DNA of 45,563 bases from an uncultured Pirellulales bacterium (GCA_964510545.1 CAZECQ010000001.1:1-45563); one strand, 5' to 3'. Counted from the first letter of the stretch, positions 161 to 9,338 are shown. Numbers and translations: made by a program. Notes: generated from the sequence alone by a model not told the origin.

Positions 161-1408
161 ATGGCAAAGATAGTTTTTCAAAATCCATTCAGGCCAGGTG
201 CTGGCCATATGCCACCATATTTGGCAGGACGAAATAAGGAAAAAGAAGAATTTCGTAAACTATTGAGGCAAGACCTAATCTTAGAGAATATGGTATTAAC
301 AGGGTTAAGAGGAGTGGGGAAGACTGTGTTGTTAGATACGTTTAAACCGCTTGCACAAAACAGCGGTTGGCGATGGGCAGGCACAGACTTATCAGAATCT
401 ACAAGTATTAGTGAAAAAAAAGTTGCGGTACGTTTGATAACAGACTTATCAATGGTTACGTCAGACATTGTGTTTGAGAGCGAAATTATCCGAACAATAG
501 GTTTTGCTCGCAAAGACGAAATAGTAAATAAGCGTCTTAATTATGAAACTTTAAGTCGAGTTTTTAATTCAACGCCCGGCCTTATTGCAGATAAATTAAA
601 AGCAATAATCGAATTAGTGTGGAATTGCATGAGGAGTAAAAGTTCAAAGGGCATAATTTTCGCCTACGATGAAGCTCAAACCATGTCTGATTATGGGAAA
701 AAAGAACAGTATCCTCTCTCGCTTTTATTGGATGTTTTTCAATCTATTCAAAAAAAAGGAATCCCGTTTATGCTTATTTTAACAGGGCTTCCAACATTAT
801 TTCCCAAATTGGTTGAAGCCAGAACATTTGCCGAGAGAATGTTTAGGGTTGTGTTTCTTGATAAGTTAACAACAAAAGATAGTAGGGACGCAATTGAAAA
901 ACCTATAGCGTTTGACGATTGTCCAGTTGTATTATCAGATGAATCAATTGGACTTATTATTGAAACCTCAGCAGGTTATCCCTATTTCATCCAATTTATC
1001 TGCAAAGAGGTTTATGATGTTTTTGTTCAACAACACAAAAAAGGCAAAATCAAAGGTGTGCCTATGGATGAAATAACACGAAAACTTGATAATGACTTCT
1101 TTGCAGGTCGATGGGCTAAAGCCACAGATAGACAAAGAGATTTATTGCGTGTAATTGCTAATCTGCCCGATGCTGATGAAGAGTTTACTGTACATGACAT
1201 TGTTGAACAATCTGAAATGTTAGAAAATCCTTTTAAGGGTAGTCAAGTTAACCAAATGCTGTTAGCTTTAGCCAACAAGGGATTGGTTTATAAAAATAGA
1301 CATGGAAAATATTCGTTTGCTGTGCCTTTGTTAGGACAATTCATTTTGAGAAAAACGCGAAAAAAAACAGGGCTTTATTTATGGGATGATTTAGAATTTG
1401 ATTCATGA
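161..1408 (+). CDS. Orphan AAA+ ATPase of the archaeal-ATPase/ORC-like type with a C-terminal winged-helix-like domain
   Basis: 415-aa ORF. Walker A is GLRGVGKT (aa 48-55) and Walker B is IIFAYDEA (aa 165-172). The N-terminal YLAGRNKEKEEF resembles the FVGRE.E motif of PF01637-like ATPases. The C-terminal VNQMLLALANKGLVYKNRHGKYSF looks like a wHTH. The gene is AT-rich relative to the core genes. Confidence 0.75.
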   Translation: MAKIVFQNPFRPGAGHMPPYLAGRNKEKEEFRKLLRQDLILENMVLTGLRGVGKTVLLDTFKPLAQNSGWRWAGTDLSESTSISEKKVAVRLITDLSMVTSDIVFESEIIRTIGFARKDEIVNKRLNYETLSRVFNSTPGLIADKLKAIIELVWNCMRSKSSKGIIFAYDEAQTMSDYGKKEQYPLSLLLDVFQSIQKKGIPFMLILTGLPTLFPKLVEARTFAERMFRVVFLDKLTTKDSRDAIEKPIAFDDCPVVLSDESIGLIIETSAGYPYFIQFICKEVYDVFVQQHKKGKIKGVPMDEITRKLDNDFFAGRWAKATDRQRDLLRVIANLPDADEEFTVHDIVEQSEMLENPFKGSQVNQMLLALANKGLVYKNRHGKYSFAVPLLGQFILRKTRKKTGLYLWDDLEFDS

Positions 1409-1410
1409 AA

Positions 1411-1506
1411 AACCCCGCTGAACCTTTGCAACCGAATCAGCTAACTATGCGGGCAGGGATTGCAGACCATATATGGAGTATTGAGGAAATTCTGAAATTT
1501 TCATAA
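1411..1506 (+). pseudogene. C-terminal remnant of a transposase (IS1/IS1595-type tail motif), about 32 codons
   Basis: The frame starting at 1411 reads NPAEPLQPNQLTMRAGIADHIWSIEEILKFS* (stop at 1504-1506). The (T)MxAGIxDHxWSxEEIL tail is one I recognise from the C-termini of IS transposases. There is no upstream coding body because the ATPase stop codon is at 1406-1408. Confidence 0.45.
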
Positions 1507-1560
1507 CAACAAAAAACCTATGCATGATTGGCTTGATAATTTCTATTAGTTTTTTTGCAC

Positions 1561-1575
1561 AAATATACTATTCGC
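1561..1575. repeat. Left copy of a perfect 15-bp direct repeat AAATATACTATTCGC
   Basis: Identical 15-mer at 2920-2934. A hand alignment extends to 26/35 matches (1561-1595 versus 2920-2954). This copy contains the stop codon of the 58-aa ORF. Confidence 0.8.
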
Positions 1576-1744
1576 GATTTCCATTTCTGGTATTGTTCGC
1601 TCTTTCCTCCATAATTTGATGAGTTGCTTCAACAAGTTCTATAGGTGTATAAACAATAGTAGTAGTCTCTGGAGAATATACTTCTTCTTGTTGTTCCTCC
1701 CATCCTTCGCGGGAATTATGTTCATTTATTTTTGAATCACACAT
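1568..1744 (-). CDS. Small strongly acidic protein (58 aa), coupled to the upstream GAF-like gene
   Basis: Hand translation gives MCDSKINEHNSREGWEEQQEEVYSPETTTIVYTPIELVEATHQIMEERANNTRNGNRE*. It is below the 60-aa cutoff of the ORF track. AAGGAG (complement of 1753-1758) lies 8 nt upstream of the ATG. The start is 22 nt downstream of the stop of the 266-aa ORF. Composition is 13 D/E versus 5 K/R. Confidence 0.45.
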   Translation of the reverse strand: MCDSKINEHNSREGWEEQQEEVYSPETTTIVYTPIELVEATHQIMEERANNTRNGNRE

Positions 1745-1766
1745 TTGGTTATCTCCTTATTTACAT

Positions 1767-2567
1767 CTAAACCTTTCGTAATGGTTCTAAAAAAATACCG
1801 AACATATCCGCTAACGATGCGCCTAAATGAAACTGTGCCTTTCCCTCTAATAGTGTGCGATATTTATTTAATTCTTTGTCGCGCCATTCAAAAATATCCG
1901 GCAGATTTCTGAAAGCTCCTTTATTTTTTGAGTCAAATGCCAGAAAACCACTTATAACGCGATGCCTTGTTTTACTATCATCCATATAAAAAATAGGAAA
2001 TACTAAAGTAGACCTATAATAATCTTCCCAATCTTTCCTTGTACATTGGAATTTATCTTTTTGTTCATATAAATCGCCACAATGGAAGCATCTTATGCCA
2101 CCCCAACTAAATTTGCCATCATTTTCGCCAAGGAATGCTGACCAAACACTATTTTTAGTAACTGGGTGAGCATCATATTGTTCAGGGGTTGGAACTCTCA
2201 TATCATACGGCTCTGACCGAGCTACAGTTGCTACTTTATAACCGCCTTTCTCTGCTTCGCCACTCAAAAATCCTTTTAGGCAGCAATGTATTTCATGTTC
2301 TGGTAATTCCAAAAGATTGCCCATTATTCTCCGACAGGCAGTACATAATTCTATGGCAGATTCTCCGCCTAAATGCCAATTTGAGTCTTGTATTGCAACT
2401 GAAAATACTCGTGCCTTGTGAGCAACTTCTTTATGTAGCACATGTGTTAAGTCTAAAGATGCTCGTGATTTGACAGAACTGATAAGTTTTCGCCCAAGAC
2501 GCAATGGCCGCAGTCTCCGTGCGACCCAAACCATTAACTCTGATAGAACTGTGCCTGTTTCTGCCAA
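1767..2567 (-). CDS. Hypothetical protein with a GAF-like sequence pattern and two CxxC pairs
   Basis: 266-aa ORF with a TTG start preceded by AGGAGA 6 nt upstream. The strand/helix pattern is typical of GAF folds (HCCLKGF, YKVATVARS, YRSTLVFPIFY, RVISGFLAFDSKNKGAF, C-terminal helix LGASLADMFGIFL). Cysteines are C75xxC78, C95C96, C160xxC163 and C175. No recognisable output or catalytic domain. Confidence 0.65.
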   Translation of the reverse strand: MAETGTVLSELMVWVARRLRPLRLGRKLISSVKSRASLDLTHVLHKEVAHKARVFSVAIQDSNWHLGGESAIELCTACRRIMGNLLELPEHEIHCCLKGFLSGEAEKGGYKVATVARSEPYDMRVPTPEQYDAHPVTKNSVWSAFLGENDGKFSWGGIRCFHCGDLYEQKDKFQCTRKDWEDYYRSTLVFPIFYMDDSKTRHRVISGFLAFDSKNKGAFRNLPDIFEWRDKELNKYRTLLEGKAQFHLGASLADMFGIFLEPLRKV

Positions 2568-2919
2568 AAAGCTCTCCTGAATAACTTTCTAATTAGTTTA
2601 ATGAGCATTAAACAAAATAACAATTGGAAATTCTTACTTTTTATTAGTCAAACCCCCATTTTCAACCTAAAAACAAGGTTTGGGCAATAATTTTTTATTT
2701 GTCCAATCAATAGACAAGTAACATTTTTCGCGCTAATCATTTTTAGAGAAGGAAAACTCAAATTAGGATACCACCAAAATGTCCTCGTTTAATTTAATCA
2801 TTTTTGCCGCTGCCAGTTTTTATAAGGTACATACCCGCAAACAAACGGGAAATTTCGATTTTGAGCACTATAAAAGTAATCATATAGCCGTTTTGGCGCC
2901 AGTCAAGAGAAAACGGACG

Positions 2920-2934
2920 AAATATACTATTCGC
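2920..2934. repeat. Right copy of the 15-bp direct repeat AAATATACTATTCGC
   Basis: It lies 10 nt downstream (in gene sense) of the stop codon (2945-2947) of the 1485-aa gene, exactly where AT-rich sequence gives way to core composition. Confidence 0.8.
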
Positions 2935-2944
2935 AGGTGATATT

Positions 2945-5900
2945 TCAGGTGGTGGTAATTGGTAGGGGTTTTTCGGAGAGTGTGGATGTTTTTCTGGAGG
3001 CGACCTGCTCGACGAAGGCCTCAAGGCGTGTGGTGAGTGTGGAATCTTCCTGGCCGTCAAAACTTAAATTTAAAATCGGCATATTATCGCAGTCGGCACT
3101 TATGCGCCTTGTCTGGCTGCTGACAATAGTCGAGGGCATACAGGTAAAGGGCATAACGTTTACGACGCCGCCGAAGCCGTGATGATAATATTCAAGTGTT
3201 TTGCCGACGCTTAATATCGCTTCACCCTCGAAGGAGTAGTGCAGGTACGGTGCGGCCAGTTCGATTACGTGCTTTATAGGCTCTTCGGCCAATCCGCCAA
3301 ATTTCTCTTCGAGGGGACGGGCGAGGGTCTTTTCGATTTTGTGCTGGAAATAGTCCTGAACAATGTTTGTAAAGTAGTTTCGTACCTGGCGTCGTCGTTT
3401 TGACATTCTGATTCGATTGAAGTTTGTGTAATAGACCCATTCGGCCAGTGAGGCCAAATCGCATGCGGCTCCCAGCTCTTCCAGGCGGGCGATTATATCG
3501 CTGTTGGCGAAGTGGTGGTTGCGGACGTAAATCTCGCCGACAATTCCGATTTTCGGTTTTTGCAGGGCGGGAGCAAGCTTAACTGCGGCGAAGTCGGCAG
3601 CGATAGCTGCGATAAGGCGGCGCAGCTGGGAGATGCTTTTTCGATTTTCGACGGCAGTAACCCACCTTTCAAGAGAGGAGTTGTAGACGCTCTGCGCTTC
3701 GGCGGTATCGGCGGCGAATGGCCGCAGTCGCAGGATTAATTTCTGGAGTAAATCTACGCCGACGGTAGCGGTCCAGACATCCTTCATAAAAGAGCCGGCG
3801 GCAGAGCCGTTAACGCTTTGGGTCAACTGCCTATAAAAATTGCTGTCCTGGTTGGGCGCAATGACGGGGATATTCGGCAGGCCGGCATACTTTAGAATCA
3901 GCGAGTGCATACAATTGTACATTCCGAACCTACAGGGGCCGGAACTGGCAGGCATAAAGAAGGCCGATTTTTCGGGGTCAAAATCTTTGGCTTTAGTGAC
4001 TTTCAGCATCTCGCCGGTAGTGATGGCAAACGGTAAACACTCCTTGCCGGTGGTGAAGGCCCTGCCTGCCAGAAGGGCTTTTTCGTCGGCGATGGGCATG
4101 ACCTCGGCGTTTTGGCCGTAAGCTCTAAAGCATGCTGCGATAGCATATGAACAATCGCTCATAAATGGAATGTAAAGCGTGCTACCATCTTTGGGTAAAT
4201 TGTAAAGCGGGGTTGTTGTGGGTTTGCCACTGAGAGTTTCAGTCAGAGCAGCTTTTTTTGCGACGACTTGTTGTTTGTCACCATCGCCGTGGTAATTTTT
4301 CAAGCTCTCCAAGAACGCTTCGAGGCGGGTAATGACACCGGCGTCGGCGGAGTGCTCATCAAGCTCCAGCTGGAGAGATGGTTTTTTGCCCATTATGTCC
4401 TTGAAGAATGTCATCAGGAAGGAATCCGGGCCGCAACTGAAGTTGGACATATATATTGCGTAAAGGCGCGGGTCGTTTTTTATGATCTCGGCGGCGCGTA
4501 AAATTTTCTGGCCATACGTCCAGTAAATTTCACTGTGTAGTTTTTCGTCGGTAATCCGAGCCCGGTCAAAATCGAGCATGTCCATAGGTATGACGCGGGC
4601 GCCGAGTTCGGCGAGTTTTTTTGGCAGTCTGAGATTTACGCCTTCATCGCAGCCATTATACGGGCGGGAGACAAGGACAAAGAGTTTTTCGTCAGGGCCA
4701 ATGCTGTCAAGAATTTGGCGCCCTTTTTCCTTCAAAGCGTTTTGGAAGTCGGCCTGTGCGGAGAGGGCTTCTTCGACGGCTGTGCTTACTACAGAAGGTA
4801 AAAGGCCTAATTTGGCGCCAAGGGAAACAAAGCTTTTTGTCAGGAGTTTGCCGCCCTCGCCTAATCGCAGCGGTTCGTTAAGGATTTTCGTTTTGCCTAA
4901 TTTGCCTGCGAAGGCGGTTTCGGCCTGGTATGGGAGTGACTGAACATAGGGACATAACTGATTGTGCTGGTTCCGAGTGAAACAGGCCATTGTCGAAACT
5001 ACGCTGGGCAGGAAGATGTAATCCACTTTCTTTTTGAGCAGTTCGGTGATGTGGCCATAGGCGACTTTGACGGGGAAGCAGGGCTGTGCGGTGACAGATT
5101 CGACACCGCTTCGAATCATAGTCTTGTTGGTCCAGCCGGAAAGGACTATTTCGAAACCAAGTGACTTAAAGAAGCGGACAAACAACGGTAAAAGGTCCCA
5201 GTACAGAAGTGCCATTGGAATACCGATTGAGGTCTTTGAGGTAGAGCTGCTTTTCTGCTTGTCAGTCAATCCGGCGCAGGCGAGCATTTTTTTTCTGCGG
5301 TACTCAAAGGCACCAAGCTCTTCGGTTTTTTGGGTGCTTTTCTTTATATTGTACCTGTCACAACGTGAGCCATAATATAAGGGTTCGGCCCGAGGCAATT
5401 GGACCTTTTTGATTTCACAATTGTTCGGGCAGTGCTCACAAGTAAATGACTCAACGCTGTATTCGATGTGGGCAAGGCTCTCAAAGCCCCGAAAGCTGCT
5501 CTTGAGAAGCTTGCCCGTCTGGGCGGCTTTTATCTTAACATGCTCTGCTGCGATGGCAGCGGCACCGAGTGCGCCGGTTACCTCGTGGTGATCTGGTACC
5601 ATAATCGGTTTTTTGACGACCTGTTCGAAGGCGGCCCAGACAGCCTTGTTGAAAGCGGTGCCTCCCTGAAAACAGATGTTGTCGCCGATTTTGCGGCGGC
5701 CAACGACACGGTTAAGGTAATTTGCAACAATAGCGTAACCCAGGCCTGCTACCAGTTCGCTTGTTTGTGCTCCCTGCTGCTGGTAGCTCAGGAGGTCGGA
5801 TTCCATAAAGACGGTGCAGCGTTCGCCCAGTTTTATCGGTGCTTTGCTGGCGAGGGCAAGCTGTTCAAATTCCTTGTTGATATTTATACCGAGGCGCTGT

Positions 5901-7402
5901 GCCTGCTCTTCGAGAAACGAGCCTGTACCTGCGGCGCAGGCGTGGTTCATTTCAAAATCGACGACGACACCGTTTTCCAGTGAGATGTATTTACTGTCCT
6001 GGCCTCCGATTTCGAAAATGGTATCGACTTTCGGATTGACTATTGCGGCGCCGGCGGCCTGGGCGGTGATTTCGTTGATGACAATATCGGCGCCGATGAA
6101 ATCGCCGGTGAGGTATCTGCCTGAGCCGGTGGTTGCGGCCCCTAAAATATTTACCTTGCCGGTGACTTTTTTGCCGACGATGTCCAATCCCCGGCGTACC
6201 GCCTCGAGAGGTTTGCCTGCAGTCATCAAATATGCTTTGGCCAGCAGGCGTTTGTGCTCATCCATAACCACAACATTTGTGCTAAGCGAGCCGACATCGA
6301 CACCCAGGTATGCATCGAGCGGCTTGGTCGCTTCCGTGAGCAGGTGTTCATAGACGGGACTCTTCGGCGGAGGCAGAGCGGGCTTTTTTAAGCGTTCTCT
6401 CCGCGGGGCTCTCTGTAAAGCTGAACCTCTTTGGGCAAGGTAAGTATCGATTTTATCAAGCTGGATTCGGTAATCGCCTTGATTGGAGGTTTTTCTTTTT
6501 GCGAGCAGGACAACCCCGATAGCGCCTGTAAAAAAGTGTTTTTCCGGTACGAGCAGCTGACCTTTTGGTAAGTTAAAGACCTGTTCGAGCGCCCTGACGA
6601 CACCGATATTGGCTGCCACGCCGCCTGTGAAAATGATTGGTTTCATAAACTCTCTGCCGCAACCGAGGTTGCTTTTTAAGTTCCTTGCCAGCGCAAGACA
6701 CAGGCCGGCAATGATATCACAGGTAGGTGTGGCCTGCTGCTGGAGGTGAATCATATCACTCTTTGCGAAGACTGAGCAGCGGCCGGCCATTCTCGGTACG
6801 GTTTTGCTCTGGACGGCCAATTGGCCAAACTCATCTTCGATATTTATACCGAGCCGCTGGGCCTGCTGGTCGAGAAATGAGCCGGTACCGGCGGCGCAAA
6901 CTGTGTTAAGCGCAAAATCGTGCATTCTTATTTTACCCTGCTCTGTCGAGAGGAAAATAAGCTTGCTGTCTTGTCCGCCCATTTCTATTAGTGTTGCCTG
7001 CTGAAGCTGAGGATAGATGTGGCATATTGCGGCCGCCTGTGCCGGGACTTCGTTGACAAAGGGGATTGACAGCAGCTTAGCAAATAATCTGCCTGCCGAG
7101 CCAGTCGCTGCTGCAAGGGCTATACCCGATGGATTGGTGCGCTTTAAGGCTTCGGTGAGTTGTGAACGTGCGGTTTCGACGGGTCTTCCCATAGTGCGCC
7201 GGTAACTGCTGAAGATTAGCTCAGAATCTTCGTCAAGTACGACCACGTCGCTGCTGGTTGCGCCGATATCGATTCCGATATAAAGCCTGCGTCCTTTTCG
7301 CAACAATTCAGGACGGTATTGTGTCAACCGTCCTGTTGTGGTTCTTTCTATCGGTGCTGTATCACTCATCCTTGTCTGCCCCGTTCGCTTTTCATTAGTC
7401 AC
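2945..7402 (-). CDS. Fusion of two BcrAD/BadFG-type (HgdC-like) activase ATPase modules to a DUF2229/dehydratase-like C-terminal region (acyl-CoA dehydratase activase-related protein)
   Basis: 1485-aa ORF with two ASKHA ATPase modules (YIGIDIGATSSDVVVLD and YLGVDVGSLSTNVVVMD). Each module carries CAAGTGSFL(D/E)(Q/E)QAQRLGI. A Cys cluster CEHCPNNC follows them, then a long C-terminal region of the type fused in YjiL/YjiM-like proteins. Confidence 0.85.
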   Translation of the reverse strand: MTNEKRTGQTRMSDTAPIERTTTGRLTQYRPELLRKGRRLYIGIDIGATSSDVVVLDEDSELIFSSYRRTMGRPVETARSQLTEALKRTNPSGIALAAATGSAGRLFAKLLSIPFVNEVPAQAAAICHIYPQLQQATLIEMGGQDSKLIFLSTEQGKIRMHDFALNTVCAAGTGSFLDQQAQRLGINIEDEFGQLAVQSKTVPRMAGRCSVFAKSDMIHLQQQATPTCDIIAGLCLALARNLKSNLGCGREFMKPIIFTGGVAANIGVVRALEQVFNLPKGQLLVPEKHFFTGAIGVVLLAKRKTSNQGDYRIQLDKIDTYLAQRGSALQRAPRRERLKKPALPPPKSPVYEHLLTEATKPLDAYLGVDVGSLSTNVVVMDEHKRLLAKAYLMTAGKPLEAVRRGLDIVGKKVTGKVNILGAATTGSGRYLTGDFIGADIVINEITAQAAGAAIVNPKVDTIFEIGGQDSKYISLENGVVVDFEMNHACAAGTGSFLEEQAQRLGININKEFEQLALASKAPIKLGERCTVFMESDLLSYQQQGAQTSELVAGLGYAIVANYLNRVVGRRKIGDNICFQGGTAFNKAVWAAFEQVVKKPIMVPDHHEVTGALGAAAIAAEHVKIKAAQTGKLLKSSFRGFESLAHIEYSVESFTCEHCPNNCEIKKVQLPRAEPLYYGSRCDRYNIKKSTQKTEELGAFEYRRKKMLACAGLTDKQKSSSTSKTSIGIPMALLYWDLLPLFVRFFKSLGFEIVLSGWTNKTMIRSGVESVTAQPCFPVKVAYGHITELLKKKVDYIFLPSVVSTMACFTRNQHNQLCPYVQSLPYQAETAFAGKLGKTKILNEPLRLGEGGKLLTKSFVSLGAKLGLLPSVVSTAVEEALSAQADFQNALKEKGRQILDSIGPDEKLFVLVSRPYNGCDEGVNLRLPKKLAELGARVIPMDMLDFDRARITDEKLHSEIYWTYGQKILRAAEIIKNDPRLYAIYMSNFSCGPDSFLMTFFKDIMGKKPSLQLELDEHSADAGVITRLEAFLESLKNYHGDGDKQQVVAKKAALTETLSGKPTTTPLYNLPKDGSTLYIPFMSDCSYAIAACFRAYGQNAEVMPIADEKALLAGRAFTTGKECLPFAITTGEMLKVTKAKDFDPEKSAFFMPASSGPCRFGMYNCMHSLILKYAGLPNIPVIAPNQDSNFYRQLTQSVNGSAAGSFMKDVWTATVGVDLLQKLILRLRPFAADTAEAQSVYNSSLERWVTAVENRKSISQLRRLIAAIAADFAAVKLAPALQKPKIGIVGEIYVRNHHFANSDIIARLEELGAACDLASLAEWVYYTNFNRIRMSKRRRQVRNYFTNIVQDYFQHKIEKTLARPLEEKFGGLAEEPIKHVIELAAPYLHYSFEGEAILSVGKTLEYYHHGFGGVVNVMPFTCMPSTIVSSQTRRISADCDNMPILNLSFDGQEDSTLTTRLEAFVEQVASRKTSTLSEKPLPITTT

Positions 7403-8231: not shown

Positions 8232-9338
8232 ATGAAAGTAAATTTCAGCAGGGAAGCCCTTACAGAGGCCTTAGGTTTACTCACATTTGTGGTACCAGGC
8301 CGAACGCCAAAGCCGATACTTCAGTGTGTGCGAATCACGGCAGATGAAAAAAATGTGCGAATCTGTGCAACAGACCTCGAGGTCGGCATTAATTGTCAGG
8401 TCTCCGGAGTTCAGATTGAGGAGGCTGGAGAAACAGTTGTCCCGGCGGACAGATTAGCGGCTGTTGTGCGTGAGAGTGCCGACGAAGTGTTATCAGTAGA
8501 GGCAGAGGGTGGGGTATGCAAGATTACAGGTGCCGACAGTCACTTTACGATTTACGGCCAGGAAGCGGAGCAATATCCGACAGTGCCGGGTTTCGATGGC
8601 GCTGCTGATGTAGAGATTAATCTCGGGGTTCTGCAGGGAGGGATAGAACAATGCCTGTTTGCGACGGCCAAAGAAAGCACTCGCTATGCGCTAAATGGTG
8701 TGCTTTGGGAGATGAAAGGCAAGAAGTTACTGTTGGTTGCGACTGACGGCAGGAGGCTTGCCCGCAGCAGGGTCAACCTTGCTACTTCGCCGAGCAAGGA
8801 AATCTCACAGGCGAAGATAATCGTGCCGGCAAAGACGATGGGGCTTTTAGATAAAATCGGCGGAAGCAATAAAGATGTGGTTGCGATTAAGCTTGTCGAT
8901 AACCAGATAGTGATGAATTGTGCGAACGTTGTTGTAAGCTCAAATCTCGTTGAGGGTAACTTTCCGAAATATGAAGACATAATACCGACTGATAACGACA
9001 AGAAGCTGAGATTATCGACAGAGGCGACACTGAGTGCGGTCCGCCGGGCGGCGCTTTTGACAAGCGAGGAGTCCAGAGGGATTAAGTTAGCAGTTGGTCA
9101 GAACAGCTTAGTGTTTTCCTGCAGGGCTCCGGAGGCGGGGGACGCGCAGATAGAGATGAGCGTTGAGTATAAAGGCGAGCCGATTGAAATCGGGTTCAAT
9201 CCACATTTTCTTACGGATGTTCTGCGTGTTATCAAGGAGCCGGAATTTGAGTTAGAGCTGGGGCAGCAGGACAGGCCGGGCCTGATGAAAAGCGGGCAAA
9301 ATTTTCTGTATGTTTTGATGCCGGTGAGTCTGGGGTAG
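8232..9338 (+). CDS. dnaN: DNA polymerase III beta sliding clamp
   Basis: 368 aa. Motifs: PILQCVRI, RYALNGVLWE, LLLVATDGRRLA, NFPKYEDIIP, GFNPHFLTDVLR, C-terminal YVLMPV. AGAGG lies 8 nt upstream of the ATG. Confidence 0.95.
   Translation: MKVNFSREALTEALGLLTFVVPGRTPKPILQCVRITADEKNVRICATDLEVGINCQVSGVQIEEAGETVVPADRLAAVVRESADEVLSVEAEGGVCKITGADSHFTIYGQEAEQYPTVPGFDGAADVEINLGVLQGGIEQCLFATAKESTRYALNGVLWEMKGKKLLLVATDGRRLARSRVNLATSPSKEISQAKIIVPAKTMGLLDKIGGSNKDVVAIKLVDNQIVMNCANVVVSSNLVEGNFPKYEDIIPTDNDKKLRLSTEATLSAVRRAALLTSEESRGIKLAVGQNSLVFSCRAPEAGDAQIEMSVEYKGEPIEIGFNPHFLTDVLRVIKEPEFELELGQQDRPGLMKSGQNFLYVLMPVSLG

Follow-up and report, generated by a model that had tools for sequence, protein, structure and literature searches.

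ToxFtsL_D9 of Gelidibacter mesophilus (WP_027127282.1) is a protein of 281 amino acids (aa) that combines a transmembrane segment with a helical region and a GAF domain (Ernits et al. 2023, PNAS, PMC10440598). In E. coli, this validated toxin blocks division and elicits filamentation and delayed lysis, and it is neutralized through direct binding by the adjacently encoded PanA (WP_027127283.1) (PMC10440598). Here, we describe a pair of genes that may operate along similar lines. It is located near the start of a 45,563-nucleotide (nt) stretch of DNA from an uncultured Pirellulales bacterium (GCA_964510545.1 CAZECQ010000001.1:1-45563; hereafter “the window,” meaning that stretch at its full length), and it encodes a 266-aa protein with a predicted GAF fold and a 58-aa partner micro-protein. 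ToxFtsL_D9:PanA appears to be the nearest precedent for this pair in both layout and logic. Each is a two-gene module in which a protein of ~270–280 aa has a helical N-terminal region ahead of a GAF domain, a comparison made at the level of layout. Each also features a neighbor-encoded binding protein that neutralizes its partner, as validated for toxFtsL and as predicted for the window pair. N-terminal transmembrane helices like that of toxFtsL are found in distant members of the window protein’s family only; unlike toxFtsL_D9, the window protein itself has none. The 58-aa partner also differs from PanA, as it has no Pfam match and is too short to be a Panacea (DUF4065) domain. By analogy, the pair is probably best regarded as a toxin-antitoxin-like two-gene module with a GAF-containing large subunit, the family of which is present in no annotation library that we searched: neither protein had a match in Pfam, NCBIfam, PADLOC-DB v2, or PHROGs. 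A preliminary description of the window, made from its sequence, knew of no described system with this composition. That statement requires qualification: a GAF toxin with a separate neutralizer is known in toxFtsL_D9:PanA (PMC10440598), albeit with a different kind of antitoxin.

The two genes and their ribosome-binding signals are arranged as follows.

1767..2567, minus strand: gene of the GAF-fold protein, 266 aa; an open reading frame (ORF) with the start codon TTG
2574..2578, minus strand: Shine-Dalgarno sequence AGGAG of the GAF gene, 6 nt upstream of the TTG (direct sequence reading)
1568..1744, minus strand: gene of the partner micro-protein, 58 aa; an ORF with the start codon ATG
1753..1758, minus strand: Shine-Dalgarno sequence AAGGAG of the partner gene, 8 nt upstream of the ATG (direct sequence reading)

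The partner ORF begins 22 nt past the stop codon of the 266-aa ORF. Both ORFs, this spacing, and the position of the AAGGAG motif are just as the preliminary description gave them. The small ORF is a real, conserved gene that is probably translationally coupled to its upstream neighbor.

The structure of the 266-aa protein was modeled with AlphaFold2 using 13 homologs. The resulting model (predicted local distance difference test score (pLDDT) 84, predicted template modeling score (pTM) 0.80) has N-terminal helices at residues 2–19, 23–60, and 64–85, which are followed by an alpha/beta GAF core spanning residues 94–266. When this model was compared to the PDB with Foldseek, only GAF domains were returned at a probability of 1.0; the top match was the type II free methionine-R-sulfoxide reductase fRMsr (4mmn, E = 8e-5, TM-score normalized to the target of 0.66). 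VIA-align likewise listed GAF domains for all 50 of its top entries. Canonical GAF domains, among them cAMP- and cGMP-bound examples, aligned over 140–170 residues with Z of 10–13.7. The GAF domain of PtsP (3trc) had a Z of 13.7 and a root-mean-square deviation of 3.2, with 163 of its 168 residues aligned. Neighbors of the protein in the ESM Atlas also carry the GAF label. Judged from its predicted structure, the 266-aa protein is thus a member of the GAF superfamily at the level of fold. The original GAF-like call, which had been made by eye, was correct, and the proposed check with AlphaFold and Foldseek returned a GAF fold, not a non-GAF family. The accompanying statement that the protein lacks an output domain was also borne out. 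The fold is shared over the whole core with canonical GAF domains (PtsP 3trc, NifA/FhlA-type proteins, PDE2/5/6, phytochromes, and fRMsr). One of these, the GAF domain of PDE6, has as its binding partner a small and mostly unstructured subunit that is inhibitory (P-gamma); the PDE6 complex was among the Foldseek matches. The window protein departs from the canonical GAF domains in that it has conserved residues of its own (H45, K98, T114, R117, S118, R124, D150, W155, F161, G207, and D212), stands alone, and is mobile. As a separate observation, the fold matches in BFVD (E = 1e-5 to 6e-4) included T4-type class III holins (labeled “T holin lysis mediator” and “Class III holin”), along with a number of “GAF domain-containing” phage proteins. 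At the level of predicted structures, these matches point to a GAF-like globular domain in holin T.

In sequence, the protein belongs to a family that stands apart from the curated GAF families. The Pfam models GAF, GAF_2, and GAF_3 failed to match the window protein at E ≤ 1 and matched 0 of 87 family members at E ≤ 0.1. A profile search of PDB sequences yielded only designed coiled coils, which aligned to the N-terminal helices. To gauge the extent of the family, phmmer was run exhaustively against 1.84 billion cluster representatives: 179 clusters (50% identity) were found at E ≤ 1e-3, and 47 at ≤ 1e-30. A further protein search with the family alignment contributed almost no new members. 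One putative member, P0066 (2,696 aa; 23 matches to residues 182–231), was rejected as spurious, as it is a translated tandem DNA repeat. The majority of the family consists of stand-alone proteins of 260–300 aa, and nearly all members derive from metagenome contigs. Across the 87 members, H45, K98, T114, S118, R124, G147, D150, W155, F161, L166, P191, G207, F211, D212, F219, and P223 are nearly invariant, and R117 is conserved in 78 of them.

Some members of the family are fused to recognizable domains. P0087 has an N-terminal TIR domain of the CAP12/Pycsar type, while P0136 and P0145 have a C-terminal TIR_2. An N-terminal Ser/Thr kinase domain (Pkinase) is found in P0068, PIG-L in P0032, and HTH_3 in P0135, which derives from a Bathyarchaeum metagenome-assembled genome (MAG). 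Real N-terminal transmembrane helices are present in P0137, P0102, and P0117, as well as in the distant L008 and L021 proteins. Such a spread of fusions is what one would expect of a regulatory or receptor domain of conflict and signaling systems. In the TIR-bearing relatives, the GAF-like domain occupies the sensor position beside the CAP12/Pycsar-type TIR or TIR_2, which is reminiscent of the Pycsar cNMP-binding-TIR, CBASS TIR-SAVED, and Thoeris systems. The window protein differs from those systems in having neither a TIR nor any other effector domain. Moreover, no cyclase or other signal-producing gene is located nearby; the pair has a protein partner in place of a nucleotide-synthesizing enzyme.

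At all nine family loci for which DNA was available, a same-strand ORF of 53–72 aa is located downstream of the GAF gene, its start falling between −113 and +32 nt relative to the GAF stop codon, a pairing that goes beyond coincidence.

Window, this MAG: partner of 58 aa
L001, Planctomycetota MAG: partner of 69 aa
L002, metagenome: partner of 53 aa
L003, metagenome: partner of 58 aa
L009, G269: partner of 72 aa
L018, G543: partner of 58 aa
L019, G722: partner of 58 aa
L020, G409: partner of 66 aa
L022, G501: partner of 59 aa

A tenth partner, P0165, was found by database search on the same contig as the family fragment P0014. ORFs of ~60 aa also follow the transmembrane-GAF genes in L008 and L021. 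These were not counted, as they have no detectable similarity to each other or to the partners and their DNA is rich in guanine plus cytosine (GC). The partners have in common only a central core of ~18 residues, which consists of a short alternating hydrophobic strand, often with a Pro, followed by a helix whose pattern is similar to L-[VIL]-x-A-G-x-K-[IL]; the tails are variable. In the window partner, the conserved core corresponds approximately to residues 28–46. A profile built from four partners ranked the G269 partner first of 1,400 six-frame ORFs from five independent loci (E = 0.004).

The preliminary description had emphasized the acidity of the small protein and had proposed a survey of homologs for a small acidic ORF downstream. 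The window copy is indeed strongly acidic, with 13 D/E versus 5 K/R, and the survey recovered the small ORF at every locus, but not its acidity. Of the nine partners, six carry a net basic charge and two are close to neutral, which leaves the window copy as the only clearly acidic one. Because the charge of the partner is not conserved, we dropped the notion that it acts as a DNA mimic.

We then turned to the predicted complex of the two proteins, another check that had been proposed. An interaction was predicted in each of three runs (ipSAE of 0.85, 0.87, and 0.85), while all three controls scored 0.00. Of 80 solved complexes, 58 attained this ipSAE mark, as did 2 of 110 mismatched pairs; this calibration is approximate here, since our own alignments were used. 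At least 78% of the contacts recurred between runs, and the pLDDT of the partner was ~60. The partner contributes residues 27–52, i.e., its conserved core, to the predicted interface. The surface on the GAF protein comprises the stalk helix (59–72), the end of beta-1 (99–102), beta-2 and its loop (110–127), the beta-4/beta-5 hairpin (193–207), and the C-terminal helix (260–264). Among the conserved polar residues, T114 and R117 are inside this interface, and K98, S118, and R124 are adjacent to it. The modeling supports, in silico only, binding of the two proteins through the core of the partner.

The pair is an autonomous, horizontally mobile two-gene module. Its family is rare and patchily distributed: of 401 genomes sampled from the phylum, 3 contain it, and of 401 from the class, 6 do. 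In the window, which is the start of a contig in a 339-contig MAG, a low-GC block (~35% GC) that holds both genes extends from position 1 to ~2940 and abuts core DNA of ~51% GC. The GC content of the cassette is 10–20 points below that of its flanks in all seven genomes with comparable flanks. The neighbors of the pair differ in every genome (purH/ruvA, flagellin, RmuC, glycosyltransferase). In one genome (L009; G269:C181), positions 299–6981 hold a complete type I restriction-modification operon (hsdR, 4561–6981; hsdM, 1946–3568; hsdS, 299–1693), and hsdR and hsdM are separated by the inserted pair, the stop and start codons of which overlap with theirs. At L022, in a complete genome (G501:C1, 8362–9146), a one-base frameshift in an A-run (~8895–8905) splits the GAF gene; the 59-aa ORF of the partner has remained intact. 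This lesion reflects either decay to a pseudogene or a homopolymer sequencing error.

Taking these data together, we hold with moderate confidence that the pair is a type II toxin-antitoxin-like module or an anti-phage, abortive-infection-like switch, which is the most parsimonious interpretation. The layout is that of type II toxin-antitoxin systems: adjacent, co-oriented, tightly spaced genes that move together, as evidenced by the nine of nine loci, the patchy distribution, and the foreign GC content. The preliminary description had offered toxin/antitoxin-like, anti-sigma-like, and DNA-mimic arrangements side by side; the first of these agrees with how the pair is distributed, with its contexts, and with the predicted complex, whereas the last did not hold up. 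Toxicity, the identity of the toxin, and the trigger are matters that we infer, as is, by analogy with toxFtsL, a target in the membrane or the division machinery. In such a mechanism, the GAF domain would act as a receptor that is bound by its own micro-protein and perhaps by a small ligand as well. The co-translated partner would dock via its strand-plus-helix core on the edge of the GAF sheet and on the stalk helix (59–72), and the docked partner would hold the 266-aa protein inactive. Loss of the partner, or occupation of the GAF pocket by a ligand, would release the activity. In the fused relatives, the output would evidently be the attached killing or signaling portion (TIR, Ser/Thr kinase, PIG-L, HTH, or transmembrane helices); where the protein stands alone, the only candidate would be its N-terminal extension, which is helical, amphipathic, and rich in Trp and Arg.

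Several observations weigh against this interpretation. The stand-alone 266-aa protein has no recognizable effector domain, and it has no transmembrane helix (no 19-residue window had a mean Kyte-Doolittle value of at least 1.8). The 58-aa partner has no helix-turn-helix (HTH), ribbon-helix-helix (RHH), or other match in Pfam or NCBIfam; a DNA-binding domain, which autoregulates the operon, is common but not universal in type II antitoxins. In the profile search described above, the more distant partners ranked 2–6 of 1,400, with none individually significant, and the L018 partner was not found. Sequence homology between the most distant partners is not statistically demonstrable. The complex scores represent the model’s own confidence and derive from shallow alignments. 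Most neighborhoods contain housekeeping rather than defense genes, and neither a tblastn search of phage and plasmid collections nor a scan of IMG/VR gave a match.

The alternative that fares best is a non-toxic signaling pair, in which the GAF protein would sense a small molecule and either sequester or release the micro-protein, or itself be tuned by it, in a partner switch, with the regulation of a third component as the output. Comparable cases are the GAF domain of PDE6, paired with the small subunit P-gamma, and NreA, paired with NreB. Sensing of small molecules is a classic role of GAF domains, and the cyclic-nucleotide-bound GAF domains among the fold matches are in keeping with this role. 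The housekeeping character of most neighborhoods also favors a signaling pair. The nearly invariant K98, T114, R117, S118, R124, and D150 (and also D212) suggest a binding site. Nevertheless, no conserved third gene accompanies the pair at any of the nine loci. The fusions can be read in two ways: those to HTH_3 and to the kinase resemble ordinary one-component signaling, but the TIR fusions, like the insertion into the restriction-modification operon, point to conflict systems. A host-integrated regulator is also difficult to reconcile with a patchy distribution and a foreign GC content in every host. On balance, we consider a signaling pair unlikely.

A sub-case of the toxin-antitoxin-like reading is a membrane module that targets lysis or division in the manner of a holin/antiholin pair or of toxFtsL, with the micro-protein as the inhibitor. 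Here, the N-terminal helix would bring the protein to the membrane, and the protein would interfere there with division or permeability. The first helix (residues ~2–19) of the 266-aa protein is amphipathic and rich in Trp and Arg. Among 80 family members, the N-terminal 25 residues contain 5.9% Trp and 16.5% Lys plus Arg, and the median hydrophobic moment over 14 residues is 0.55; in distant members, transmembrane helices replace this first helix. The filamentation and delayed lysis caused by toxFtsL (PMC10440598) would fit such an activity. The T4-type class III holin matches in BFVD (E = 4e-4 to 6e-4) also have a helix-plus-globular-domain layout, yet they may reflect only a generic GAF-like fold. 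Phage T4 holin T and its antiholin RI do resemble the pair in combining a helix-anchored protein that has a globular domain with a small binding partner, a lead at the level of fold that was obtained against predicted structures only. However, holin T is membrane-embedded, has a periplasmic domain, and belongs to a phage lysis cassette, whereas the window family is not phage-borne in the collections searched and the window protein has no transmembrane segment. Furthermore, the TIR, kinase, and HTH fusions portray the GAF part as a regulator of varied outputs, not as a membrane effector in itself. This more specific proposal strikes us as quite improbable.

The preliminary description had also drawn attention to two CxxC pairs, the CC at 95–96, and C175 as a possible metal or redox site. 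Counted on the translation, all seven cysteines (C75, C78, C95, C96, C160, C163, and C175) are at the positions given, but the idea did not survive comparison with the family. In the 87 members, conservation is 85% for C95, 79% for C163, 72% for C160, 67% for C75, 66% for C175, 52% for C96, and 40% for C78, and the substituting residues are A, S, T, or V, as is typical of buried positions. Because no cysteine is invariant (40–85%), a family-wide metal or redox center is not supported by the alignment. It is very unlikely, then, that the pair constitutes a thiol- or metal-dependent enzyme or redox sensor (an fRMsr-like GAF enzyme, or a Zn or Fe-S site) with a small accessory subunit. The case for it includes fRMsr 4mmn being the top Foldseek match in the PDB, as well as the beta-5 motif GFLAFDS of the 266-aa protein, which we take to resemble the D-x-D-S strand of fRMsr. 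Yet fRMsr structures are no closer to the model than other GAF domains are (VIA-align Z of 10.9–12.2 versus 13.7), and the family, in which no cysteine is invariant, differs from fRMsr with its invariant catalytic and resolving cysteines in the GAF pocket. All 13 of the closest homologs retain H94, C96, C160, and C163, and H94 is present in 83% of the family; a zinc site formed by these four residues could still exist in this subfamily, although C160 is absent from the L001 and L004 relatives. The enzyme or redox-sensor proposal also leaves the mobility and the TIR fusions unexplained.

Finally, that the 58-aa ORF is not expressed or not functional, leaving the GAF gene as an orphan accessory gene, is highly improbable: the micro-protein has no database family and the distant partners are not significantly similar, but the ORF has a consensus Shine-Dalgarno sequence at the right spacing, is kept at nine of nine loci, including very AT-rich ones where 58 open codons are unlikely to occur by chance, and has a conserved core that coincides with the predicted interface.

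The remaining features of the region surrounding the pair are given below.

2879..2906, minus strand: promoter-like site TTGACT-16 nt spacer-TATGAT, with 10 of 12 matches (consensus scan only; weak)
1561..1575, plus strand: left copy of a perfect 15-bp direct repeat, AAATATACTATTCGC, overlapping the stop codon of the partner gene (repeat search)
2920..2934, plus strand: right copy of the same repeat, at the GC boundary and 10 nt past the stop codon of a 1485-aa core gene
161-1408, plus strand: P-loop ATPase that matches AAA_16/ATPase_2 weakly and has a winged-helix-like tail; shares the low-GC island with the pair and is convergent with it

The promoter-like site is ~310 nt upstream of the GAF start codon, and the count of such sites in the region is no higher than in shuffled sequences. 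An Rfam scan of positions 1380–3000 gave only chance-level matches. The perfect 15-bp direct repeat brackets the window cassette, and no comparable bracketing repeat was found at the eight other family loci. We thus rejected it as a feature of the family; it may mark this particular insertion event. The ATPase was rejected as a third component, as it is absent from the other family loci. At L018 (G543:C59, 9594–12082), four more unannotated low-GC genes are located beside the pair, one of which encodes a multi-pass membrane protein (227 aa); none had a Pfam match. This run of genes may be further island cargo. The gene dnaN is ~4 kb from the G269 pair and is likewise situated in the window.

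Relatives from the same family differ in what occupies the slot directly after their ortholog of the 1485-aa activase-fusion gene: a TIR protein that stands alone, an MNT/HepT pair, a WYL-WCX regulator, or tsaB. The first three are located as follows.

L027 174-767, minus strand: stand-alone TIR protein, in the slot downstream of the 1485-aa ortholog
L032 2375-3065, minus strand: MNT/HepT toxin-antitoxin pair, in the slot downstream of the 1485-aa ortholog
L024 270-1268, plus strand: HTH-WYL-WCX regulator, in the slot downstream of the 1485-aa ortholog

This slot is a variable cargo hotspot near the replication-origin region, and its cargo is often of the toxin-antitoxin or defense kind.

If the pair is indeed a toxin-antitoxin or defense switch, it would add a protein family that is absent from annotation libraries, a new type of micro-protein antitoxin that is routinely missed by ORF cut-offs, and a new role for the GAF fold, that of a receptor whose ligand is a protein instead of a small molecule. 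Different outputs should then be controlled by one and the same receptor domain and should turn on when the partner is swapped or removed. A broader proposition, which we advance only tentatively, is that a GAF-like domain and a micro-protein of ~60 aa form a general, portable, partner-gated switch that fires whatever output is attached to it when the labile partner is lost. In this family, the candidate outputs would be a TIR NADase, a kinase, a PIG-L hydrolase, transmembrane helices, or an amphipathic helix. Were this true, there would be a large, unrecognized class of guard-type immune or toxin-antitoxin modules across bacteria and archaea, of which the window pair would be the minimal, effector-less form.

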